Numbered from the stretch's first letter, positions 40,307 to 53,637 are shown. The stretch is 64,000 nucleotides of DNA from Clostridia bacterium (GCA_017560225.1 JAFYOJ010000191.1:3455-67454); one strand, 5' to 3'. The notes: generated by a model from the sequence alone, not told the origin. Numbers and translations: made by a program.

Positions 40307-42817
40307 TCAGAAGGACCAGGTGGAGAACCAGCGAAGTCCGTCAATATAGGCTTCTTTCACAGGAATTCCCACCATCACCGGATAGAACAGAACATACAAA
40401 ACCAAAACCAGAAGCAAGTATCCTCCGATCACCCAACGGTTAATCACTTTGTCTTCATACAGACATTTAATCACGTATACAATCATCAAAATCAGGAACG
40501 GTACAGCGGTAAAATAGTGATAAATAAACGTACACCGGGTTACCAAAATCCAGGGGAACAACTGACAAGCGTATCCAAGGAATACAACCAGCATCATTTT
40601 CTCTTTTCGTTTCCAAGCAAAGTACAAAGCCGGAATGATACAAGCAAGACCGGTCCACCAAATGGCCGGATTACCCATGGAAACAACAGATGCCCGGATG
40701 CCGGCAGGAAGCCCGGCAGAAGCGCTGGAATAATAGTAAATAGGACGGCCATCTATAATCCAGGAATACCAAGAAGACTGGTAGGAATGGGTTGCATTCA
40801 AATTCGCATGATAGTTATACATATACTCCTGATTATCCAGCACAATTTCAATCAAGGACTTATCCGGATTGGAGGCCATATACGGAATATAGGACAAAAC
40901 GTAAATAGTCAGCGGAATAATCACAAAGAAGACCACGCACATCAAGCAAGTGGGAATGAAATTCCCCACGAACCAGGACTTCTTACCGGCAGGAATTTTA
41001 TACCGACCGGAGGACACATCCATACTTTCTGCAATCTTCGCCATAAAGAACAGTACCGCAAGACCGACGCCCGCATAAATACTGGTCCATTTTGCCGCCG
41101 CACCCAAACCGAAGCACAGACCGGAAAGGCCCAAAGAAACCATCCCTTTCCAGAAAGGACGGTCGTAAGACCGCTGGGAGAAATAATCGTACATAAAGTA
41201 GTACATCAGCAAAATAAAGAATACGGAATACGTATCAATAGTCGCCAATCTGGTTTGTGTCGTCCGCATAAAGTCGGTCATCAGCAGGAAAGCCGCAATA
41301 AACGCATAACCCCGCTTCTTAAATAACTTAAATGCAAGCAGATACATAATGGGCACCAAGCATACGCCCAAAAGCGTACCCATAAAACGCCAACCAAACG
41401 GATTCATGCCGAACAGGGAAATACCAATGGAAATAATGGTCTTTCCAAGAGGCGGATGGGTCACTTCATAGATGGGCAGGCCATTCATATGCTCATAGGC
41501 CGTTCTGGGGAAGTAAATTTCATCAAAATACGTACCGTTCTCGAACGTCCGGTAAGCCTGTGCCAGATCCTGTTCGTCAAAGAGCTTGTCCGGCGTATGG
41601 GGATTGGTTTCATCCGTACTGTACGTTTCCACCACAGTTACGGGCACAAGGGTATAGTTGCCTTCTGCATCTTTCTCCCAGAAAGCCATTTCATTCAGGC
41701 CCAAACCTCTTACTTTCACCGTTACACGAACACGTTTCGTGGTAAAGGTCACGTTCTTCAAATGCCATTCAAAGAAAGCGATATCATCTCGATCAAAGGA
41801 AAATGCTTCTTGATATTCGCCCGAGGCGTTTTCATAAGCAACTTCATAGGCCGCATTGCTGGTATTGGGCACGTTGGGATTCAACGTCACACGGGAAATC
41901 TTGGTTTCCTCCGGGAACTCTACAATAACGTATTCACCGGAAGCAACCGGTTTCCAATGGGAGCTAACACCTTCCGCATTTCCCAACTTATAGAAAGAGG
42001 TACACGCACATACCAATGTGAGCACCGCCAGCACGATATAATCTTTCTTATCCAGGCGCGCCCGGGGCTCCGAAAGAGATTTGCCCAACGCAACCTTCTC
42101 ATCATCGTGGCGCATAATGGTGGCCATTACGTACATCACAAGACCCACCACCAAAACAATAAACAAGGCTTGGAAATACCAGGGCGTATCACTGCCGGCT
42201 TCTTTCTTCTGCGTCTGATAGGATTCAACGGAGAAAGGCTCTACGCCACCGGGCACCTTAGATACTTTCTCAATTTGAACGTCGTCAATATAAACAATAC
42301 CGGCAGACTCATTGCTGTAACCGCCAAGGCCAAAACTCAGTTCCAAAGAAGTTTGTTTGGCTCCGGTGGTAAAATAAGCCGTCTGTTGTTGCCATTTGCC
42401 GTCAGTGGTATAAAGGGCTTCAGAGTGACCAAAGGTTTCAATGGCAGAAATATTAAAACCATTTCCGCCCACCAGGGTTCCCTCAATCTTAACCATGGCA
42501 GTTACCTTGTAGGTACTGTTCTTCTTGACAGCCAGTTTCTGATAAATACGAGCATCATTGGCAGAATTGCTGGCAATTTTCACCGCCTGGCCGGAGTAAC
42601 CGTCTGCCACCAAAGAAATCGTGGTGCAAGCGGTGTCCCCTACATCCTTTTGGTAATTGCGCTGACTCCACTGGGTAATCTTAGTGCCACTTCCTTGCTC
42701 AAAATCCCCATTTGCCAATGCTTGATTGCCGCTACAGCCCACCAACGTGACCAGCGTCATCAAGATTATGAGTATAAAGAGTCCTGCTTTCTTATTCAAA
42801 CAAAGAAATTTCTTCAT
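40307..42817 (-). CDS. Membrane GT-C glycosyltransferase of the PMT/GT39-like (phospholipid-carrier-dependent) family with an N-terminal extracytoplasmic carbohydrate-binding-like domain.
   Basis: A lipoprotein-type signal peptide (MKKFLCLNKKAGLFILIILMTLVTLVGC) is followed by a CBM4/9-like jelly-roll of about 180 aa and a multi-transmembrane core (YFDEIYFPRTAYEHMNGLPIYEVTHPPLGK, a PMT-like loop). The start is ATG 42817 after GGAGGAAG. It overlaps the upstream gene by 26 nt. Confidence 0.7.
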   Translation of the reverse strand: MKKFLCLNKKAGLFILIILMTLVTLVGCSGNQALANGDFEQGSGTKITQWSQRNYQKDVGDTACTTISLVADGYSGQAVKIASNSANDARIYQKLAVKKNSTYKVTAMVKIEGTLVGGNGFNISAIETFGHSEALYTTDGKWQQQTAYFTTGAKQTSLELSFGLGGYSNESAGIVYIDDVQIEKVSKVPGGVEPFSVESYQTQKKEAGSDTPWYFQALFIVLVVGLVMYVMATIMRHDDEKVALGKSLSEPRARLDKKDYIVLAVLTLVCACTSFYKLGNAEGVSSHWKPVASGEYVIVEFPEETKISRVTLNPNVPNTSNAAYEVAYENASGEYQEAFSFDRDDIAFFEWHLKNVTFTTKRVRVTVKVRGLGLNEMAFWEKDAEGNYTLVPVTVVETYSTDETNPHTPDKLFDEQDLAQAYRTFENGTYFDEIYFPRTAYEHMNGLPIYEVTHPPLGKTIISIGISLFGMNPFGWRFMGTLLGVCLVPIMYLLAFKLFKKRGYAFIAAFLLMTDFMRTTQTRLATIDTYSVFFILLMYYFMYDYFSQRSYDRPFWKGMVSLGLSGLCFGLGAAAKWTSIYAGVGLAVLFFMAKIAESMDVSSGRYKIPAGKKSWFVGNFIPTCLMCVVFFVIIPLTIYVLSYIPYMASNPDKSLIEIVLDNQEYMYNYHANLNATHSYQSSWYSWIIDGRPIYYYSSASAGLPAGIRASVVSMGNPAIWWTGLACIIPALYFAWKRKEKMMLVVFLGYACQLFPWILVTRCTFIYHYFTAVPFLILMIVYVIKCLYEDKVINRWVIGGYLLLVLVLYVLFYPVMVGIPVKEAYIDGLRWFSTWSF

Positions 42818-44906
42818 AGACTTCTTCCTCCAACATCCAAATTTCATATCGTTTATTTCGAATGGTCTCGTTACCCGTAACGTATGCAATCGCTACCGCA
42901 ACAAGCAAGATACACAAAATCAAATTTCCGGCTGCCAATAAATCTCGATGAATGGCATCTCCTGCCCAATAATACCAACCGTACACAGATTGCGGTGCAC
43001 CGACATTTTTCAAAACGCCGCCGGTTTCTAATCCCATCATTACGGAAAATACGGACAAGAAGCTAATGCCGGATATACCGCCGTAAAGCCACAAAAGAAT
43101 TTTATTATTCGTTCCGATCACCGCAAGCAACAAGAACGGAATGGCCGGGAAGAAATAACGTTCATGCATACGGGGTGCAAACATGGTAACCGCCAGAACC
43201 AGTACTGCGGCTAACAAGAAGGGAGTTTCCTCCTCCATTTTACCAAACAAATAAAGCGCACCCACCAACAAACAAACCACAACAATAAACAGAAGGCCCC
43301 ACTGGAAGAAGGTCATTCCCCAAAGCCATTTTCCGCTATCGTTGGTCCAGTTCTCGCCCAACAAGTACCAGAAGTTGTATGCATTTACAGTAGCTCCTTT
43401 ATACCCATTGGCAGTACCTACATACAGTTCTATAATCCACTTAAAGAAGCCCGCACCTCGATGAATGCCAAAAGGAAGGGCAACCAAAGAAAGCGTGGCC
43501 GCAAACGAACTGAGAATGCCAAACAAGCTGCCGATTTTCTTCCATACAGCCATTTCACGATTCCAAATCAATCGGCGCAGCCATGCAAAACCCAAAATAG
43601 GGATCAAGAAGATTCCCTGGGGTTTCAAAATAACCGCAAAAGCAACGCACACGGAAGCCGGTACCAAACGATCTTTCATAATGAAATACAACATCAAGCA
43701 CAAAGGCAGCGCTTGCAAGCTGTCCACCTGGCCCCACGCAGCGGAATCCAAAAGCACCATGGGATTAAACACCCATGCACTCACCAAGAACAACACCCAT
43801 TTTCTGGGCATCCGTTGGTCACAAACTTTGTAAATCAAGAATGCAATCACGCAATCCGCCAACATAGAAGGCAGTTTCAAAAGAAGCGTATGACCCAAAG
43901 TGCCTGTAATGCCCAAGGCTTTTGCTAAAATAGTGTTGAACCACAAGAAGTAAATATAAAGGGGTGGATAATCCAAACTGTATTTCTCTGCATTTTTGTA
44001 GAAATTCACAATGCCGTCTTCCGCACACCGCTCACCCCAGTATCGGAACAAGTTTACGTCAATACTACACTGAGGCGCCGTCACAGACAAAATCAAACGA
44101 AGTACCAATCCGGCACTGATGATGGTAAGCACCCATTTTAACAACTGGCGATTGCGCTGTTTACGCTCTGCCGGAACGATGATCTGCACGGCTGCCCGTC
44201 TGCTATACCGATACATCACAATAAAGATTGCACCCATCACCACAGTAAGGAGCGCACCGATTTTCATAGCATCCCAATACAGACTTTCCTCTGCGTAATT
44301 AGAAGTGCCGGCACCGCTCATGCTGTTCTTAAAGGAAACTACGGTCACACCGGAGGGTTTGGCGGAAAGCTGCTGCACTTCTACGTTATCAAACCACGCA
44401 GTTCCGGTAGAAATGCCACTATAGAATCCCAAACGCAAACACACTTTCATTTCTTTCTGACCGTCTGCAGTAACGCCGTATAATTCCACCCGAGTCCAAT
44501 CTTGATCCCCGGTAAATCCACCGCTATACTCAAATGTGTTCAGCACGGAAATATTGCCCCCCACCGCACTGCTACTTTCTACAACGCCTTGCGTCTTGAT
44601 CCACGCTGTAATTTTATAATAAGTATTGGGACGTACGTCTACGTCAATGATATAACGGGCATCATTATCCTGCGTATTCTCAATTTTGACACAGCCACTG
44701 CCGTCTATACCGCCGTCTTTATCCCAGGCAAAGTTAGAAAGCTGGGAGGTATAGGCTTGGGGATAAAAAGCGCCCGCCCCTTGATTGAAGTCCCAAGACC
44801 CCAGTAATTGATCTTCTGCCTTGTCCGATTTACAGCTTGTTGCAAATACCAACAGGACCAGTAGACAGCATAAAATAATTTTACGTAAATACGTTCCTTT
44901 TCTCAT
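42792..44906 (-). CDS. Second membrane GT-C glycosyltransferase-like protein with a paralogous N-terminal carbohydrate-binding-like domain.
   Basis: The lipobox signal is LLVFATSC. The N-domain aligns with that of the downstream gene (GCVKIENTQDNDARYIIDVDVRPNTYYKITAWIKTQG versus QAVKIASNSANDARIYQKLAVKKNSTYKVTAMVKIEG). The multi-transmembrane region has a DYPPLYIYFLWF loop reminiscent of GT-C families. The start ATG overlaps the upstream stop as ATGA. Confidence 0.65.
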   Translation of the reverse strand: MRKGTYLRKIILCCLLVLLVFATSCKSDKAEDQLLGSWDFNQGAGAFYPQAYTSQLSNFAWDKDGGIDGSGCVKIENTQDNDARYIIDVDVRPNTYYKITAWIKTQGVVESSSAVGGNISVLNTFEYSGGFTGDQDWTRVELYGVTADGQKEMKVCLRLGFYSGISTGTAWFDNVEVQQLSAKPSGVTVVSFKNSMSGAGTSNYAEESLYWDAMKIGALLTVVMGAIFIVMYRYSRRAAVQIIVPAERKQRNRQLLKWVLTIISAGLVLRLILSVTAPQCSIDVNLFRYWGERCAEDGIVNFYKNAEKYSLDYPPLYIYFLWFNTILAKALGITGTLGHTLLLKLPSMLADCVIAFLIYKVCDQRMPRKWVLFLVSAWVFNPMVLLDSAAWGQVDSLQALPLCLMLYFIMKDRLVPASVCVAFAVILKPQGIFLIPILGFAWLRRLIWNREMAVWKKIGSLFGILSSFAATLSLVALPFGIHRGAGFFKWIIELYVGTANGYKGATVNAYNFWYLLGENWTNDSGKWLWGMTFFQWGLLFIVVVCLLVGALYLFGKMEEETPFLLAAVLVLAVTMFAPRMHERYFFPAIPFLLLAVIGTNNKILLWLYGGISGISFLSVFSVMMGLETGGVLKNVGAPQSVYGWYYWAGDAIHRDLLAAGNLILCILLVAVAIAYVTGNETIRNKRYEIWMLEEEVYEEISLFE

Positions 44907-45625
44907 GCCTTTAACAGCCTTTCTACAACAGCTCCGCTGTCGATTTCAATTCCTTTCCGGTAAATCAGTTCCCGGATATAACACCCTTTGCCGATGACGG
45001 CAGAATCGCAGAAGAGTTCTTCCACATGGGTATATGTCAAATTAGCCTCTGATACATCCATAAAGGTAACTGTAAGGAGTGGCGACGTACAGGTCATTTC
45101 TAACTGTCCGGGAGGCGTTACGTAGCGCACCGTCACACGGTCACTGTTTAGTTCATGAATCCGAGAGGGAAAACATGATAATATTTCCAACTCCTGACAA
45201 TTAACCTGTTCATTTGCCAACAATTGTCCTTGAATCGTTACCCGATCTCCTTTGAGTTTCTGGGTTGCTTCCAGGGTACCGGACCCTTTCACCAACAAAC
45301 GGCCTGCGGAAAATGCGCCCTGAATATTTCCCTTATGCTCAAACACCGCCACATCCGACCAACAGCGACCAAGCACGGTTAAGTCACCCGGCACCTGAAT
45401 GGTTTCTGCCAATAAGTTTTGCTTAAAACAAGCCTCTCCCGAAATCCACAGCCGATCACAGGTGGCAAATTCTCTGAATTGGGCCGTACCGGTTATATCA
45501 ATCCGGTCCGCTTCCACCGTTTCCATAAAGTAGCAATCTCCCGTCACCTGCAAGTTCTGCAAGTGTAAGGGTTGGGTTGCAGTGTGGCGATCTTCAATTA
45601 CAAGGCCATTGAAATTATGATTCAC
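44903..45625 (-). CDS. Beta-helix repeat protein, possibly of the bactofilin-like polymer-forming cytoskeletal family (tentative).
   Basis: The 240-aa protein has repetitive short beta-strand periodicity (VTGD..., ITGTAQF, ISGEACF, VPGDLTVLG, VKGSGTLEA). The start is GTG after AGAGGAGG, inside the last codons of pepF (11-nt overlap). Confidence 0.4.
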   Translation of the reverse strand: MNHNFNGLVIEDRHTATQPLHLQNLQVTGDCYFMETVEADRIDITGTAQFREFATCDRLWISGEACFKQNLLAETIQVPGDLTVLGRCWSDVAVFEHKGNIQGAFSAGRLLVKGSGTLEATQKLKGDRVTIQGQLLANEQVNCQELEILSCFPSRIHELNSDRVTVRYVTPPGQLEMTCTSPLLTVTFMDVSEANLTYTHVEELFCDSAVIGKGCYIRELIYRKGIEIDSGAVVERLLKA

Positions 45626-50504: not shown

Positions 50505-50710
50505 GTCGAAAAAGTACTAAACTCAGTGTTTCACGACCTGCTCCAGGTCGTAAAAAGCACCCAAAGCCATATATACGACCCGTATAATCCGGTAAATATA
50601 GCATTTCAGCGAAATTTAACCAATAGTGCGGGTCGTACATGGACAAAACAGCGTCAATTACGACCTGTCAGAGGTCGTGAAACAGTGAAATAATCAAAAT
50701 TATGACCTCT
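50505..50710. repeat. Nested palindromic element of about 200 nt built from ACGACCTG / CAGGTCGT hairpin units. It may be REP- or MITE-like, or a structured ncRNA.
   Basis: About eight copies of the GGTCG/CGACC core occur. Hairpins are seen at 50529-50553 (ACGACCTG-ctc-CAGGTCGT) and 50658-50682 (ACGACCT-gtcag-AGGTCGT). A long-range stem pairs TACGACCCG at 50573 with CGGGTCGTA at 50628. Outer inverted flanks are GTTTCACGACC and GGTCGTGAAAC. Confidence 0.4.
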
Positions 50711-50719
50711 CCCACTGAA

Positions 50720-50763
50720 AAAATACAAAAAGGGGCGGTTTCTAAAGAAACAACCCCTTTTTT
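50720..50763. terminator. Bidirectional terminator. It serves the minus-strand beta-helix gene.
   Basis: The hairpin GGGGCGGTTTC-taaa-GAAACAACCCC is flanked by A-runs on the 5' side and T-runs on the 3' side. Confidence 0.5.
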
Positions 50764-50790
50764 GATTAGTTTCCAATGGATCCAGCGTCT

Positions 50791-52704
50791 TTACTGCGCT
50801 TGAATTTTGAAGACGCCCGCCTGCGCATCCCAATAGGTTTCGTAACCTTCATTTTGACAAATCAGCTTTGTTTCGTCCCCTTCGGTATACGTATAACCGG
50901 TCACCGGCTTTAAGTTAAAGGCACTAAAGTTCTCACCTTCCGTTACATAGAATTTAAACGCACCGAAAGAAGCTCCAAGATTTGCAGTATTGTGGCCGGT
51001 ACCTAAATCAAAGTACACAATACCACGAATACCCTCTCCACCAATAGTGGGCGTAAGTCCACCTTGAATGAAGATGTTGTCATCAAGCTGACCGCCGGAA
51101 ATATTTACATTAGGATTCCAGCCATAGACACCGGTCCATCTTTCTTCGGTTGCGCTCACATTTCCGTAAATCTTACCACCGCTCATATTAAACTTCGTAT
51201 AGTTGGAAATACGGAAAGCGCCACAAGATTCAGTTGCTACATTTTCAAAAATCTCCACATTTCCACCAACATTGACGGTAGAACCATCGCCCGTATAGAG
51301 TACACCACCTACCGATGCACTATTTCCATAAATCTTACCGCCGTTGAAATTATAGACGGAAGCACCATATCCCCAAATCACACCGCCGGCAGTAGTTGCT
51401 TTGTTATAACTGATTTCACCACCATTTACAGTGAAATTACAGCTACTTACCATACGAATAGCACCTGCGCTGGCCGTAGAAGAATTATAACGAATTGATC
51501 CCGCATTGAGCGTAATATGTCCACCGCCATAAATAGCTCCGCTACCGGAATTATTATTGATAATGTGGCCACCCTCTAACGTGAGCGTAGCACCGATTCG
51601 TGTACCCATATTTACCGCATGGGCACCGTCGTTATTTTGAAGCACTGCCCCTTCGCCAAGAATCAAATGGCTGTTGGCATTCAAAACAACAAGTGCGCCG
51701 GTTGCAGTAAGGCCGGTATTCTCCATGCCACGATTTAAAACAGCATCAATCTCACCACTCCAAATAGCACCACCATCGACCACGATGTTCTCCAAGGTTA
51801 AGGTCGCGCCGGCTTCAACGCTAAAGACTTCCGCAAGATGGGCGGTTGTCGTAGTTCTGGCTGAAAAAGTAGTGGCAGGCGTTTGTCGCATAAGCGCGAA
51901 ACCCGCACCGTCAATATTGACATCGTAATCAACTACAATCTTTTCTTCCACAGGGAAGTTCGCCGTGAAAAGAATATTCTCTTCTTGGTTTTGAAGTGCC
52001 GCCTTTAACTCACGGGCATTGGCAACAGGCGCAAAATTAAGCGGTGCATTGACGTCATATTGATCATCAAATCCATCACTTTCTCCGGTAGCTTGGGACG
52101 CCACAATTTTAATATCAAAAATACCACCCAAAGAAAGACCTTGGTATTCATTTCCCGCAGATTCACGCATCTTCAGCGCAATACCCAGATACGCTTTCTC
52201 GCCGGCCTTCAGCGTACCCTTGGTGGTTTCTTCAATGCTATTGATAAATTCTGCTAACGTTCCAACCTGCGTATACCCGTTCAGTGTACGATCCGCAGGA
52301 TATGTAACCGTAGCATCATCTTCAAGAACACCATAGTTCAGCACATACACATCAATTGCATCGGCAAGGATAGACAACGCATCTTCAGACACAAACTTTG
52401 CCATCCACTTTAAATTCAAATCGCCCTCGTTCTCAATGCGAAGAATCTTCACATCTGTATATCCGGGTTCCCATTTATCGTTGTTAAAGAGCGCATTCTT
52501 ATCTTGCTTCAAAGAAGACCATGAACCGTCTTTGTTCAAAAGCTCCAGATCCACAACAAAATTACCCGATTCAATCTTATTGCCGGAAGACGTCACCGTA
52601 TCCGTAAACCAAGCAAATGTATTTCCCACAAGGAGAAGAATACACATGAGAATCGCGAATAAACTTAAATACAGTGCTTGCTTGTTTGTTGCTCGTTTCG
52701 TCAT
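50791..52704 (-). CDS. Secreted protein with a SipW-cognate (TasA/camelysin-class) signal peptide and N-domain fused to a long right-handed parallel beta-helix.
   Basis: The N-terminus MTKRATNKQALYLSLFAILMCILLLVGNTFAWFTDTVTSSGNKIESGNFVVDLEL matches the SipW-cognate signal (A[WY]FTD...N.F..G..[VL]DL). Residues about 40-220 resemble the TasA/camelysin beta-sandwich. Residues about 260-560 carry G/N/S/T-rich about 22-residue beta-helix coils (GGAIWSG, GGHIINNNSGSGAIYGGGHITL, GGEISYNKATTAGGVIWGYG...). The RBS is TAGGAGG. Confidence 0.7.
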   Translation of the reverse strand: MTKRATNKQALYLSLFAILMCILLLVGNTFAWFTDTVTSSGNKIESGNFVVDLELLNKDGSWSSLKQDKNALFNNDKWEPGYTDVKILRIENEGDLNLKWMAKFVSEDALSILADAIDVYVLNYGVLEDDATVTYPADRTLNGYTQVGTLAEFINSIEETTKGTLKAGEKAYLGIALKMRESAGNEYQGLSLGGIFDIKIVASQATGESDGFDDQYDVNAPLNFAPVANARELKAALQNQEENILFTANFPVEEKIVVDYDVNIDGAGFALMRQTPATTFSARTTTTAHLAEVFSVEAGATLTLENIVVDGGAIWSGEIDAVLNRGMENTGLTATGALVVLNANSHLILGEGAVLQNNDGAHAVNMGTRIGATLTLEGGHIINNNSGSGAIYGGGHITLNAGSIRYNSSTASAGAIRMVSSCNFTVNGGEISYNKATTAGGVIWGYGASVYNFNGGKIYGNSASVGGVLYTGDGSTVNVGGNVEIFENVATESCGAFRISNYTKFNMSGGKIYGNVSATEERWTGVYGWNPNVNISGGQLDDNIFIQGGLTPTIGGEGIRGIVYFDLGTGHNTANLGASFGAFKFYVTEGENFSAFNLKPVTGYTYTEGDETKLICQNEGYETYWDAQAGVFKIQAQ

Positions 52705-52730
52705 TTTATAACCTCCTATAAATAAACCCT

Positions 52731-53528
52731 TTATAATTTCTTACGAATATAAACAATTTCCTTTTGCGTTTTGTGTTGTGGTTTCTTAGAAACTTTGACA
52801 CGATGGCACTTCTTATTATATAAAACAATTTTTGTTTTAGAACGGTTGGGCATCAAGACTTGATTCTGCCGATTTAACGCCAATTGTTTCTCTTCAAGCT
52901 GCGCCTTTAAGATACGCAATTCCTCCACCAATTGGTCATTGGAAGCCCGCTCCGCCTCCATTTCTTTCAAGGCTTCTTTCTTGGATTTGCGAAGAACCAC
53001 AAAGAAATTGATAATTTCATAGAGTACAACCAGCATTATGGGGGTGAAAATACAAAGGAAAAATCCTTGGGTCGTTTTTAAGAAATTAAAAACCGCACCA
53101 AGGCCTGCAATATGAAACTCATATTTTCCAAGAATATCTTGATATAACACAATTCCCGCATCGTCTGCATTCGTGGATGTACCATAGGTGATAAAACCTT
53201 TATTTCCGTTTGCATCCGTAGCTAAACTTCTAATTTTATGGGTCAGTGTTTCATCGAGGCTATTCTCATCCTTTGAAATAAAGGTAATAATATCTCCCGG
53301 TTTTAACGTATCTAAATCAACCGCCTTCACAAAGATCAGGTCACCTGATTTAAAATCTGTTTTCTCCATAGAGTCAGAATTAACAATAAAAATTTTATAT
53401 CCAAAAAGAGTACGATCGTTACGATTTAAGGTTGTCAAAGAAAATACGGTAAAAACAGTCATGGTAACCGCACCAAGTACAACAAGCCAGACCAATATCG
53501 TTTTAACAATATCAAAGGCTTTTCTCAC
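52731..53528 (-). CDS. sipW: Signal peptidase I, ER/archaeal type (SipW-like, S26B) with a C-terminal coiled-coil plus basic extension.
   Basis: The sequence IVNSDSMEKTDFKSGDLIFVKAV contains the SxSMxP S26B motif. A conserved His is present (LTHKIRSL) and there is a C-terminal transmembrane segment. An extra tail of about 100 aa follows (KKEALKEMEAERASNDQLVEELRILKAQLEEKQLALNRQ..KKCHRVKVSKKPQHKTQKEIVYIRKKL). The start was chosen at GTG 53528 after GAGGA. TTG 53573 is the alternative. Confidence 0.75.
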   Translation of the reverse strand: MRKAFDIVKTILVWLVVLGAVTMTVFTVFSLTTLNRNDRTLFGYKIFIVNSDSMEKTDFKSGDLIFVKAVDLDTLKPGDIITFISKDENSLDETLTHKIRSLATDANGNKGFITYGTSTNADDAGIVLYQDILGKYEFHIAGLGAVFNFLKTTQGFFLCIFTPIMLVVLYEIINFFVVLRKSKKEALKEMEAERASNDQLVEELRILKAQLEEKQLALNRQNQVLMPNRSKTKIVLYNKKCHRVKVSKKPQHKTQKEIVYIRKKL

Positions 53529-53637
53529 AACAACTCGTCCTCGTTTCCTTAAAAATTTCTGTCCAAACAACAAAAAACCAATCTCGAATTATTATATCAT
53601 AACTCTCGATTGGTTTCAATAAACTATCAAAATTCCC

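Follow-up and report, generated by a model that had tools for sequence, protein, structure and literature searches.

A SipW-like signal peptidase and a TasA-class beta-helix protein encoded by a putative two-gene fibre module in an uncultured gut Clostridia bacterium

Background

Genes for ER-type Ser/His signal peptidases are found beside the genes of their substrates in tapA-sipW-tasA of Bacillus subtilis and in sipW-tasA / calY of B. cereus. The catalytic triad of B. subtilis SipW is Ser47/His87/Asp106, and the protein carries a 20-residue cytoplasmic tail with a regulatory function (PMC8767453). In TasA, residues 28-38 form the donor strand (a pellicle assay of a 28-38 deletion mutant has been reported) and the C-terminal residues 239-261 make an inter-subunit contact (PMC9674648). 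In Clostridium perfringens, sipW and bsaA form a bicistron with a terminator after bsaA, and SipW is required for both export and polymerisation of BsaA (PMC7395162). The archaeal and bacterial TasA-superfamily filaments of AbpA/AbpB, the AbpX loci and Tafi are complemented by donor strands and also have their genes beside an SPase I gene of the TIGR02228 type, as does the putative fibre subunit described here. Extra subunits in these systems have structurally variable distal domains that are proposed to be adhesins, and FimH-like adhesin domains have been suggested for AbpB (Wang et al.). TasA-type donor-strand fibres have so far been studied as single-domain matrix proteins in Bacillus, C. 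perfringens and a few archaea.

Results and Discussion

Operon organization

The 64,000-nt stretch of DNA analysed here (the window) belongs to the uncultured Clostridia of the herbivore (ruminant) gut, and its host is known only from MAGs. The initial annotation described a peptidase gene followed 26 nt later by a gene for a 637-aa protein. The coordinates bear this out: the 637-aa ORF (50791..52704, minus strand) and the upstream ORF (52731..53573, minus strand) run in the same direction and are 26 nt apart, and the sequence AGGAGG sits 7 nt 5' of the ATG of the 637-aa ORF. Upstream of the peptidase gene is a predicted sigma-70-type promoter (53591..53619, minus strand) composed of TTGAAA, a 17 nt spacer and TATAAT, with TG before the -10 hexamer; as a consensus match only, it agrees at 11 of 12 positions and is the best site in the region. 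An intrinsic-terminator-like hairpin (50722..50767, minus strand) with 22-nt arms that are 82% complementary, a 2-nt loop and A- and T-runs on either side is located 24 nt past the stop codon of the 637-aa ORF. A simple terminator scanner did not list this hairpin, and the promoter and terminator are both pattern matches only.

The locus is a self-contained two-gene operon in which a SipW-type peptidase is followed by its putative substrate. This arrangement resembles C. perfringens sipW-bsaA(BCRSD), where sipW is also first, the substrate second and the bicistron closed by a terminator, and BsaA, a SipW-dependent secreted polymer, is likewise a protein of the Clostridia (PMC7395162). The two systems differ in that BsaA is a 23-kDa single-domain protein and in that the present locus has no adjacent two-component regulator or BsaB/C-like genes. 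In contrast to the Bacillus system, the host is an anaerobic gut Clostridium and the neighbourhood lacks a TapA or CapP accessory gene: within the 64-kb window, no TapA- or CapP-like initiator or anchor, no cell-wall anchoring motif, no second gene for the N-terminal domain of the 637-aa protein (the N-domain) and no short "major subunit" paralogue were found.

Signal peptidase

The upstream gene encodes an ER/archaeal-type (S26B, SipW-like) signal peptidase I. Its likely start is the GTG at 53528 (265 aa; 52731..53528, minus strand; GAGGA 9 nt upstream) rather than the TTG at 53573 (280-aa ORF), because the promoter leaves too little room for the latter. A database protein named signal peptidase I (Clostridia bacterium; P0121) is also 265 aa in length and is 100% identical. 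The peptidase scores 72.2 bits against TIGR02228 (cut-off 51.85), as expected from the SipW-type assignment made previously, and 22.8 bits against the bacterial model TIGR02227 (cut-off 47). A LepB-type (bacterial P-type) identity was ruled out on the basis of these two scores. With the Bacillus SipW equivalog NF046067 it scores 74.5 bits, far under the cut-off of 190; as judged from these profiles, the protein is SipW-like by homology rather than an orthologue of the Bacillus enzyme.

Both the SDSM motif of S26B enzymes and the conserved histidine noted in the initial annotation are present. S53 (SDSM), H97 (THKI), D105 and D123 do not vary among 30 homologues (265-aa numbering), such that Ser/His catalytic residues stand in place of a Ser-Lys dyad, with D105 and D123 as candidates for the Asp. 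A first hydrophobic transmembrane helix (residues 9-33; 53430..53504, minus strand; helix 2-33 in the model, with the N-terminus inside the cell) is followed by the extracytoplasmic catalytic domain containing S53 and H97 (residues 34-152; 53073..53429, minus strand) and a second transmembrane helix (TM2; residues 153-180; 52989..53072, minus strand), after which comes RKSKK. In the predicted structure, helices 2-33 and 153-223 (the latter continuous through TM2) flank an outward-facing beta domain at residues 44-140. The enzyme thus has two transmembrane helices, compared to the 10-TM form reported for AbpX-linked SPases.

Signal peptide and donor strand of the 637-aa protein

The N-terminus of the 637-aa protein had been annotated as a SipW-cognate signal, and it passes the curated model for this motif (TIGR04088: 26.0 bits, cut-off 19, residues 22-49). 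The signal peptide comprises residues 1-31 (52612..52704, minus strand; helix 8-34 in the model), with T29-F-A31 as its c-region, and T29 and A31 are invariant among homologues. The protein shares with Bacillus TasA a GT.A/.F.D...N.F.SG.L.L signal and N-terminus: in an hhalign comparison, T29-F-A31/W32-F-T-D35 ... SGNFVVDL lines up with the processed N-terminus of TasA (T-W-A/A-F-N-D ... SGTLDL). In the TasA sequence used for this comparison, F29, I32 and F39 agree with the numbering quoted in PMC9674648. Cleavage most likely occurs between A31 and W32, as predicted from this alignment; it had been suggested previously that the site lies after the FTD region, but the alignment with TasA puts it before WFTD.

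Residues 32-47 (WFTDTVTSSGNKIESG; 52564..52611, minus strand) are predicted, from the TasA alignment and from conservation, to be the mature N-terminus and donor strand. It can be aligned, residue for residue, with residues 28-38 of TasA, the donor strand of that protein (PMC9674648). It is the most conserved part of the family, with W32, F33, T34, D35, N42, I44 and G47 invariant among homologues, and residues 30-45 are of low confidence in the monomer model (pLDDT <50). According to the AbpX preprint, donor strands carry an aromatic amino acid at +2 and an acidic one at +4. Given A31/W32 cleavage, F33 and D35 satisfy this rule, a feature in common with AbpX-type filaments.

TasA/camelysin-like N-domain

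Residues 48-225 (52030..52563, minus strand) form a beta-sandwich of the TasA/camelysin superfamily with a conserved acidic boundary motif (ATQ..E.DSFD..YD), consistent with the TasA/camelysin-like domain originally proposed. As in TasA, this is a jelly-roll/beta-sandwich of the Peptidase_M73 superfamily. The hhalign comparison with TasA gave a probability of 88.7% (E 2.6e-6), and the best PDB sequence match is AbpX (9sj2, E 0.013). Foldseek matched two structures with a probability of 1.00, 8aur (TasA fibre) and 7ueg (AbpA pilus), and the Sulfolobus thread (7pnb) with a probability of 0.72; all three are donor-strand polymers. The multidomain nature of the query makes the E-values of the Foldseek matches weak (0.005-0.07). 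Pilin domains, those of FimG and PapG, were also among the Foldseek matches. Against the BsaA family model (TIGR04090) the 637-aa protein scores 18.3 bits, under the cut-off of 60.

The hit of the N-domain to PF12389 (Peptidase_M73) covers positions 13-195 of the 196 in the model, and its score of 20.0 bits, just below the gathering threshold of 22.5, was counted against a fibre-forming role. The PF12389 hit is precomputed in most orthologues. Five of six paralogues score above the cut-off (24.9-32.1 bits) and the sixth scores 21.4.

Beta-helix and C-terminal cap

Unlike TasA, the protein continues into a 412-aa beta-helix plus cap that begins where TasA ends. The parallel beta-helix that had been reported behind the N-domain was located at residues 226-572 (50989..52029, minus strand). 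It is right-handed, has regular GG.I..N / GGAI-type coils, and gave a fold match to solved beta-helices of the pectin-lyase type. It is followed by an aromatic-rich C-terminal cap with GDExKLICxN and YWDA motifs (residues 573-637; 50791..50988, minus strand, including the stop codon), which was modelled as a small beta unit (pLDDT 87-96) and is highly conserved, with 17 invariant residues from T573 to F632 among homologues.

No CAZy-type or lyase Pfam/NCBIfam family was detected in the 637-aa protein, and no family-specific model for pectin-lyase-fold enzymes (PL, GH28, GH110, GH87, AlgE) matched, at E up to 1 in both cases. The only related profile match is to PF20585, the "pectate lyase-like adhesive domain" (12.5 bits, cut-off 24.3). 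The coils are unusually regular, and what is conserved in them is mostly structural Gly and Asn. The helix also contains invariant Arg, Asp and Glu residues, of which R417 and R498 look like ladder positions rather than a single catalytic site because they sit in a repeated GA[IF]R coil motif. In our view, the beta-helix most likely binds a polysaccharide or glycan and is a putative adhesin, while a glycan-cleaving or -modifying activity is less likely.

The translation, which ends in ...YWDAQAGVFKIQAQ, contains no LPXTG motif and no C-terminal transmembrane segment, and LPXTG was found in the last 60 residues of none of 132 complete related N-domain proteins. Other beta-solenoid proteins are held at the surface differently: Lactobacillus reuteri SRRP and Streptococcus pneumoniae PfbA by LPXTG/sortase, and Vag8, UpaB and pertactin by an autotransporter barrel, both of which the 637-aa protein lacks. 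In contrast to these adhesins, its retention would rest on the TasA-like domain. Sequence identity between the query and the Gram-positive beta-solenoid adhesins (SRRP binding region, PfbA) or autotransporter passengers is only 11-17%.

Family size and gene linkage

It had been suggested that a TasA-like domain fused to a beta-helix was an undescribed architecture. On the contrary, it is the dominant form of a very large gut-Clostridia family whose members are already labelled "SipW-dependent-type signal peptide-containing protein" in databases. No paper characterising this N-domain/beta-helix family was found in the literature. The fusion is common in sequence databases, and homologues number more than 1,400. 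The N-domain family as a whole has approximately 4,600 cluster representatives, nearly all with a variable C-terminal cargo, and the cargo-bearing form is the rule across several thousand sequence clusters. Its proteins span 161 to 2,323 aa, with BspA-type LRRs among the cargos, and the same beta-helix is found behind divergent SipW-type N-domains. The hosts are uncultured herbivore-gut Clostridia (Acutalibacteraceae, Oscillospiraceae and relatives).

Where a peptidase gene is linked to genes of this family, it is on the same strand in 40/40 loci and upstream in 39/40. In 39 of 79 related loci the peptidase is absent from the fetched flanks, so many family members must be processed in trans. 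Several N-domain genes are usual at related loci, with 2-6 per cluster, and some of these genes are short (160-250 aa).

Proposed mechanism and alternatives

The explanation that we favour, and hold to be moderately probable, is that the two genes form a module in which a dedicated SipW-type peptidase licenses a TasA-like donor-strand fibre that displays the beta-helix. The peptidase would be a membrane-bound, outward-facing enzyme with two transmembrane helices and a Ser53/His97 mechanism. Following Sec export of the 637-aa precursor, it would cut between A31 and W32, and the new N-terminus (WFTDTVTSSGNKI), which corresponds to the donor strand of TasA and AbpX, would insert into a neighbouring TasA-like beta-sandwich by donor-strand exchange. 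In this way the N-domains, for which we infer polymerisation from their homology, may build a non-covalent fibre, either as a homopolymer or as a mixed polymer with paralogues encoded elsewhere, with each subunit projecting a 350-residue right-handed beta-helix and its conserved aromatic-rich cap. The operon anatomy, HMM scores, hhalign alignment, fold, donor-strand conservation, gene linkage, modularity and the helix in the peptidase tail (see below) were all counted in favour of this explanation. The continuity of the N-domain end with the 412-aa cargo could hinder packing at a contact of the TasA 239-261 type, and the absence from the window of a short major-subunit paralogue, of a TapA- or CapP-like initiator or anchor and of a cell-wall anchoring motif also counts against this explanation. 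The core of the initial annotation was borne out by curated HMMs, profile-profile and fold comparison, and conserved synteny: a dedicated SipW-type peptidase is paired with its cognate TasA-class substrate with a beta-helix, and the pair is probably a fibre or biofilm-matrix module.

The 637-aa protein could instead be a terminal or occasional adhesin on a shaft made of a short TasA-like subunit encoded elsewhere, similar to FimH/PapG or to the "tip proteins" that AbpX and Tafi loci are predicted to encode. Like FimH and PapG, it would combine a donor-strand-exchanging polymerisation domain (Ig-like or beta-sandwich) with a separate receptor-binding domain, although it belongs to an unrelated family and has its domains in the opposite order, and the FimH/PapG systems are Gram-negative, depend on a chaperone in the periplasm and an usher in the outer membrane, and donate or accept strands differently. 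The short N-domain genes and gene multiplicity of related loci are consistent with such a role, as are the FimG and PapG matches, the proposal of Wang et al. for AbpB and the prediction in the AbpX preprint that minor subunits and variable tip proteins co-assemble by donor-strand complementation. We nevertheless consider it doubtful. There is no second N-domain gene in the window, where the peptidase is paired with the 637-aa gene alone, and cargo-bearing proteins far outnumber stand-alone ones: among the best 150 N-domain relatives, 146 are longer than 300 aa and only 4 are 300 aa or shorter, the reverse of the ratio expected for major and minor subunits. Furthermore, nothing limits the protein to the end of a fibre, since a complete acceptor domain accompanies its donor strand. 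Unlike in AbpA/AbpB, AbpX and Tafi, a full TasA-like domain carries the cargo here, and fusions of this kind predominate in a large paralogous expansion, compared to one accessory gene per locus in AbpX-type loci.

It is unlikely that the protein is a monomeric secreted enzyme, with the N-domain as a self-complemented export, quality-control or spacer module and the helix as a polysaccharide lyase, hydrolase or epimerase, either soluble or loosely attached to the cell, that acts on glycans of plants or of the host in the herbivore gut. Self-complementation keeps monomeric TasA stable (PMC9674648), and the invariant Arg, Asp and Glu residues, the lack of an anchoring motif and the ruminant-gut source would all suit such an enzyme. 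The profile searches detected no matching enzyme family, though, the regular coils with their Gly/Asn conservation and repeated GA[IF]R motif (R417, R498) point away from an active site, and other cargos in the family, such as the BspA-type LRRs, are adhesin-like. In addition, the donor-strand residues are the part most conserved across very different cargos, which is hard to explain if they serve only as a cleavage site. It is highly improbable that the genes are neighbours by chance and that processing of the 637-aa protein falls to a housekeeping signal peptidase. The related loci without a peptidase in the fetched flanks would fit this explanation, but the strand and order of the linked loci argue strongly against it, as do the TIGR04088 motif on the substrate, the 26-nt gap and the promoter and terminator that the two genes appear to share.

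If the favoured fibre forms, it would explain how these abundant organisms, without LPXTG on these proteins, present adhesins or glycan-active domains to plant fibre, mucus or partner cells, and the peptidase and subunit would provide a simple two-gene system for displaying cargo on self-assembling fibres. In herbivore-gut Clostridia, a polymerisation module with a dedicated peptidase is joined to large, swappable C-terminal domains. It is possible, though tentative, that the whole family is a sortase-independent modular display system in which hundreds of paralogues enter mixed "charm-bracelet" fibres by donor-strand exchange. The nearly invariant donor strand and the acceptor domain would be shared and the cargos (beta-helices, BspA-type LRRs; up to 2,300 aa) would vary; a single SipW-type peptidase might license assembly, and its conserved cytoplasmic helix might couple processing to a partner or signal in the cytoplasm. 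If true, the TasA scaffold would give rise to multivalent surfaces, adhesive or enzymatic, by a new principle of construction that is functionally comparable to cellulosomes or pili.

Cytoplasmic tail of the peptidase

The peptidase extends approximately 85 aa past TM2, compared to approximately 20 aa in B. subtilis SipW, and approximately 70 aa beyond the Bacillus SipW model. This tail should be cytoplasmic, as it comes after the second membrane helix and starts with RKSKK (positive-inside rule). Tethering of the tail to the cell wall, which had been raised as a possibility, is therefore excluded. An atypical extension of approximately 100 aa had also been described; its Lys/Arg-rich end was confirmed, whereas the length is shorter and the helix is found clade-wide. 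Residues 181-223 (43 aa; 52860..52988, minus strand) form a conserved helical extension of TM2 (pLDDT 84-90). Among 30 homologues, its residues E203, L207 and Q210 never vary, and conservation reaches at least 90% at L204, K208, A209 and L211. The best heptad register of this helix, which had been described as a coiled coil, is hydrophobic at only 7 of 12 a/d positions.

The helix probably mediates oligomerisation or docking onto a cytoplasmic partner, and the tail may in addition act in regulation, as the short cytoplasmic tail does in B. subtilis SipW. The conserved helix offers a concrete handle on the poorly understood non-proteolytic second function reported for that protein. The remaining residues (224-265; 42 aa; 52734..52859, minus strand) are disordered (pLDDT <50) and Lys/Arg-rich, with 14 K+R and 1 D+E. 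This end is basic only in the nearest relatives (P0122-P0131), and other homologues have acidic or neutral tails.

Organization of the operon

As initially annotated, the locus contains two ORFs in the same direction on the minus strand: a 637-aa ORF at 50791-52704 and an upstream ORF whose longest form, starting with TTG, encodes 280 aa (52731-53573). The 26-nt gap between them contains AGGAGG 7 nt 5' of the ATG. A near-consensus sigma-70-type site (minus strand, 53619-53591; TTGAAA, 17 nt, TATAAT; 11/12 matches, with a TG extension) is positioned such that the TTG start of the peptidase would not have enough space. A GTG at 53528, preceded by GAGGA, gives a 265-aa peptidase that is identical to P0121, a database protein named "signal peptidase I [Clostridia bacterium]". 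A hairpin with 22-nt arms and A- and T-runs on either side is found at 50722-50767, 24 nt past the stop codon of the 637-aa gene. Based on the promoter-like site, the ribosome binding site in the gap and the 3' hairpin, the pair looks like a self-contained bicistronic unit.

According to precomputed Pfam annotation of the same locus in other assemblies, the pair is flanked on one side by genes for an AMP-binding enzyme and a FolD-type (THF_DHG_CYH) protein and on the other by a convergent gene of the ribosomal S30AE family (hibernation-factor type), all of which look like ordinary cellular genes. The locus was found again in ruminant-gut metagenome assemblies. Within the 64-kb window, tblastn identified no further copy of the peptidase, N-domain or C-domain, a regular expression for SipW-type motifs gave a single chance match only, and there is neither a TapA- or CapP-type initiator/anchor nor a short subunit. 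An Rfam search of the whole window at gathering thresholds matched no family.

An AT-rich inverted repeat read from the sequence at 53575-53613 (AACCAATCGA ... TCGAGATTGGTT, then TTTTTGTTGTTT) overlaps the promoter predicted for the peptidase gene and may terminate transcription of the AMP-binding enzyme gene that lies upstream. Elsewhere, at 42792-45625, the ORF list contains a 704-aa multi-pass membrane protein with a lipoprotein-like N-terminal signal (…LVFATSCKSD), which shares 4 nt with a 240-aa ORF located upstream in the same orientation.

Domain architecture of the 637-aa protein

The initial annotation had proposed that the 637-aa protein begins with a SipW-cognate signal and a TasA/camelysin-like domain, and both proposals held. 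TIGR04088, the model for this signal, matches residues 22-49 with 26 bits (cut-off 19). Pfam Peptidase_M73 (PF12389) aligns over nearly its whole length with residues 18-208, scoring 20.0 bits, just under the cut-off of 22.5; most orthologues have a precomputed PF12389 match, and five of six paralogues scanned are above the cut-off (24.9-32.1 bits), the remaining one scoring 21.4. An N-domain profile aligns with B. subtilis TasA at 88.7% probability (E-value: 2.6e-6). In PDB sequence searches, the best match of the N-domain profile (40 paralogues) was a marginal one to AbpX (9sj2; E-value: 0.013), and the full-length profile found nothing at E-values up to 1.

A confident AlphaFold2 (AF2) model built with 44 orthologues (pLDDT 86, pTM 0.76) contains both the beta-sandwich and the beta-helix that were sought. 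A signal-peptide helix (residues 8-34) and a low-confidence segment (residues 30-45) precede the sandwich (residues 51-204), which is connected by a softer linker (residues 205-225) to a long beta-helix (about residues 226-572, pLDDT 90-98) and a small beta cap (residues 573-637). In the structural comparison, the values are 26.3 for AlgE4, 25.3 for Vag8, about 24.7 for K1 lyase, GH110 and GH87 and about 22 for PfbA and SRRP. The coil motifs prompted us to consider membership among chlamydial Pmp-type GGAI/FxxN repeat proteins, but this is not put forward, as Pfam and NCBIfam report no such family.

An acidic motif is located at the boundary between N-domain and linker (window 52030-52110, residues 199-225): A202-T-Q204 ... 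E208-x-D210-x-F212-D-x-x-Y216-D217. It is invariant among orthologues and near-invariant among paralogues. AbpX and cannulae use Ca-dependent donor-strand complementation; by analogy, the motif could bind Ca2+ or form a contact between subunits. In a locus from the same species (L081:3825-5885; ENA ERZ28653921), the gene call for the fibre protein is 686 aa long. The cause is a 3' frameshift rather than a true architectural variant: the protein is 100% identical to that of the window through residue 623 and then differs, losing the conserved YWDAxxGxF end. The frameshift stems either from an error in assembly or from an indel in the strain.

Predicted cleavage site and donor strand

SipW removes a 27-residue signal peptide from TasA (PMC4551309). 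In our alignment, T29-F-A31|W32-F-T-D35 of the 637-aa protein lies over T25-W-A27|A28-F-N-D31 of TasA, and the precursor is therefore predicted to be cut at A31|W32. This places cleavage before the WFTD motif and not, as first annotated, after the FTD region.

The donor strand in TasA fibres consists of residues 28-38 and completes the sandwich of the subunit that follows, with hydrophobic contacts from F29, I32 and F39, and a 28-38 deletion mutant has been put through pellicle assays (PMC9674648). The counterpart of this strand, residues 32-47, is the most conserved part of the 637-aa protein: W32, F33, T34, D35, N42, I44 and G47 are invariant in the 44 orthologues and at least 90% conserved in paralogues that are otherwise only 36% identical. 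In the monomer AF2 model, the same segment is of low confidence.

Characteristics of the peptidase

The peptidase passes TIGR02228, the model for ER/archaeal-type signal peptidase I (72.2 bits, cut-off 51.85), and fails the bacterial P-type model (22.8 vs 47), which rules out a LepB-type identity. As its score with the Bacillus SipW equivalog model is far short of the cut-off (74.5 vs 190), it can be classified on sequence as SipW-like, but not as a Bacillus SipW orthologue. The serine motif and conserved histidine recognized initially are both invariant in an alignment of 30 homologues (S53 of SDSM and H97 of THKI), as are D105 and D123. These residues fit the triad reported for B. subtilis SipW (Ser47/His87/Asp106; PMC8767453).

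In the AF2 model (mean pLDDT 76), TM1 (residues 2-33) is followed by a beta-rich ectodomain (residues 44-140), a single unbroken helix made up of TM2 and a 43-residue extension (residues 153-223, pLDDT 84-90) and a disordered C-terminal end (residues 224-265, pLDDT below 50). Coming after TM2 and starting with RKSKK, the extension should be cytoplasmic, and this topology rules out the earlier suggestion that the tail tethers the enzyme to the cell wall. A misannotated frame is also ruled out: the tail is in-frame and conserved among homologues, and database annotators agree on the call.

The tail had been described as an atypical coiled coil with a Lys/Arg-rich end. The basic end stands (14 K+R vs 1 D+E in the last stretch), but only for this protein and its closest relatives, as the end is acidic or neutral in other homologues. 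The helix is not atypical: it is conserved across the peptidase clade (members of 227-311 aa), with E203, L207 and Q210 invariant in the motif ..MLEEL.ALKAQLE. Even in the best heptad register, hydrophobicity is no more than moderate (7/12 a/d positions), so the coiled coil is best treated as a hypothesis. A precedent for a functional tail is the cytoplasmic tail of B. subtilis SipW, whose C-terminal 20 residues are described as switching on matrix genes with no need of proteolysis (Terra et al. 2012, as summarized in PMC8767453).

Distribution and modularity

The full-length architecture has 1,413 database matches, more than 100 of which span the full length at 42-71% identity; all come from metagenome-assembled genomes (MAGs) of Clostridia, Oscillospiraceae or Ruminococcaceae, and some carry the name "SipW-dependent-type signal peptide-containing protein". 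When species-representative genomes were scanned, 586 relatives were confirmed. We kept 79 loci for comparison, nearly all of them from MAGs of ruminant and other animal guts, Cuneatibacter caecimuris DSM 29486 being the sole cultured-strain record. In 40 of the 79, the fetched flank includes a SipW-type peptidase, which shares its strand with the closest N-domain gene in 40/40 and lies upstream of it in 39/40. Of the 79 loci, 43 have 2-6 N-domain genes and 22 have two peptidase paralogues. Clusters are usually larger than the two-gene operon of the window, which is a minimal version.

An exhaustive search with the N-domain alone recovered 6,018 cluster representatives at E-values up to 1e-3 and 4,597 at E-values up to 1e-10. 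Among the best 150 relatives, the domain is always N-terminal and only four proteins are 300 aa or shorter; in this subfamily, a TasA-like domain is thus, as a rule, joined to cargo. The 132 complete N-domain genes encode proteins of 161 to 2,197 aa, none with LPXTG in the last 60 residues. BspA-type leucine-rich repeats are among the cargos sampled, as are other regions resembling beta-solenoids. The beta-helix C-domain of the 637-aa protein is also carried by proteins whose divergent N-domains keep SipW-type signals, and it can follow an additional inserted module.

Two recurrent subfamilies of short stand-alone N-domain proteins, both missing from the window, occupy fixed positions in larger clusters: one of about 190-213 aa with GTGASLAWF.DTS and one of about 189-196 aa with GAT[FY]ALFTS (examples, by locus and start: L004:9355, L019:12098, L020:11767, L029:10680, L038:9851, L041:10224 and L078:5680; L056:6001, L058:4583 and L073:6001). 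They are possible shaft, initiator or terminator subunits. The second peptidase paralogue, in the same cluster at those 22 loci (e.g. L003:8024-8623, L008:2303-2908 and L019:2380-2946) and in no part of the window, is divergent (about 26-46% identical to the peptidase studied here, mostly ~30%) and hints at subunit-specific processing.

Proposed mechanism and relationship to known systems

The best-supported model is one in which the 637-aa precursor would be exported by Sec and cut by the adjoining peptidase at A31|W32, after which the freed N-terminal strand would drive donor-strand exchange among TasA-like domains, giving a fibre that displays the beta-helix. Export and cleavage are predicted from curated models, the alignment to an experimentally defined site and synteny, and have a direct precedent in the C. 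perfringens sipW-bsaA bicistron, where BsaA export and polymerisation need SipW (PMC7395162); donor-strand exchange is inferred from homology and the conservation pattern. Adjacency of the two genes by chance is effectively excluded by their constant strand and near-constant order in the linked loci. One point against the fibre model is that the C-terminus of TasA takes part in subunit contacts (PMC9674648), while the same end of the 637-aa protein's N-domain runs into a bulky domain. A further weak point is the lack of a TapA- or CapP-type gene and of a short subunit in the window. Alternatively, the 637-aa protein could form the tip, or be a minor subunit, of a fibre with a shaft encoded at another locus.

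Another possibility is a monomeric secreted enzyme, with the N-domain serving only for SipW-specific export. No enzyme family model in Pfam or NCBIfam matches the 637-aa protein, the coils of the beta-helix are regular with mainly structural conservation, and the sister cargos are adhesin-like; a binding function for the cargo, i.e. an adhesin rather than an enzyme, is therefore favoured. R417 and R498 look like ladder positions, as they lie in a repeated GA[IF]R coil motif.

The cargo-bearing fibre system would work like tapA-sipW-tasA and sipW-bsaA. Judged by sequence, the pair belongs to the TasA superfamily and the S26B peptidases, but to neither the Bacillus SipW equivalog nor the BsaA family. 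The basic biochemistry of the pair is predictable, and adhesive accessory subunits on TasA-type fibres are a known idea, given that recent studies of archaeal filaments (AbpA, AbpX and Tafi) already report SPase-linked loci encoding minor subunits as well as predicted tip proteins of variable structure. The fusion of a TasA-like domain to a beta-helix, initially regarded as undescribed, is plentiful in databases, but in the part of the literature covered we found no report of a direct fusion to large beta-helix or LRR cargos, of the massive expansion of such fusions in gut Clostridia or of a conserved cytoplasmic helix on the associated peptidases. Family size, modularity and habitat make this a worthwhile and easily tested system.

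Palindrome beside the fibre gene

Between the convergent S30AE-family and fibre genes lies a long imperfect palindrome of ~166 nt (50523-50688). Each of its 31-nt inverted arms includes a separate CACGACCTS-N3-CAGGTCGT hairpin, and a further palindrome is nested inside, at 50571-50640. The predicted RNA fold is -75.4 kcal/mol (z = -8.65), and the element has no Rfam family match. Possible identities are a MITE/REP-like element or a structured RNA. Present as a single copy in the window, the palindrome is also found in the same-species loci L080-L082.
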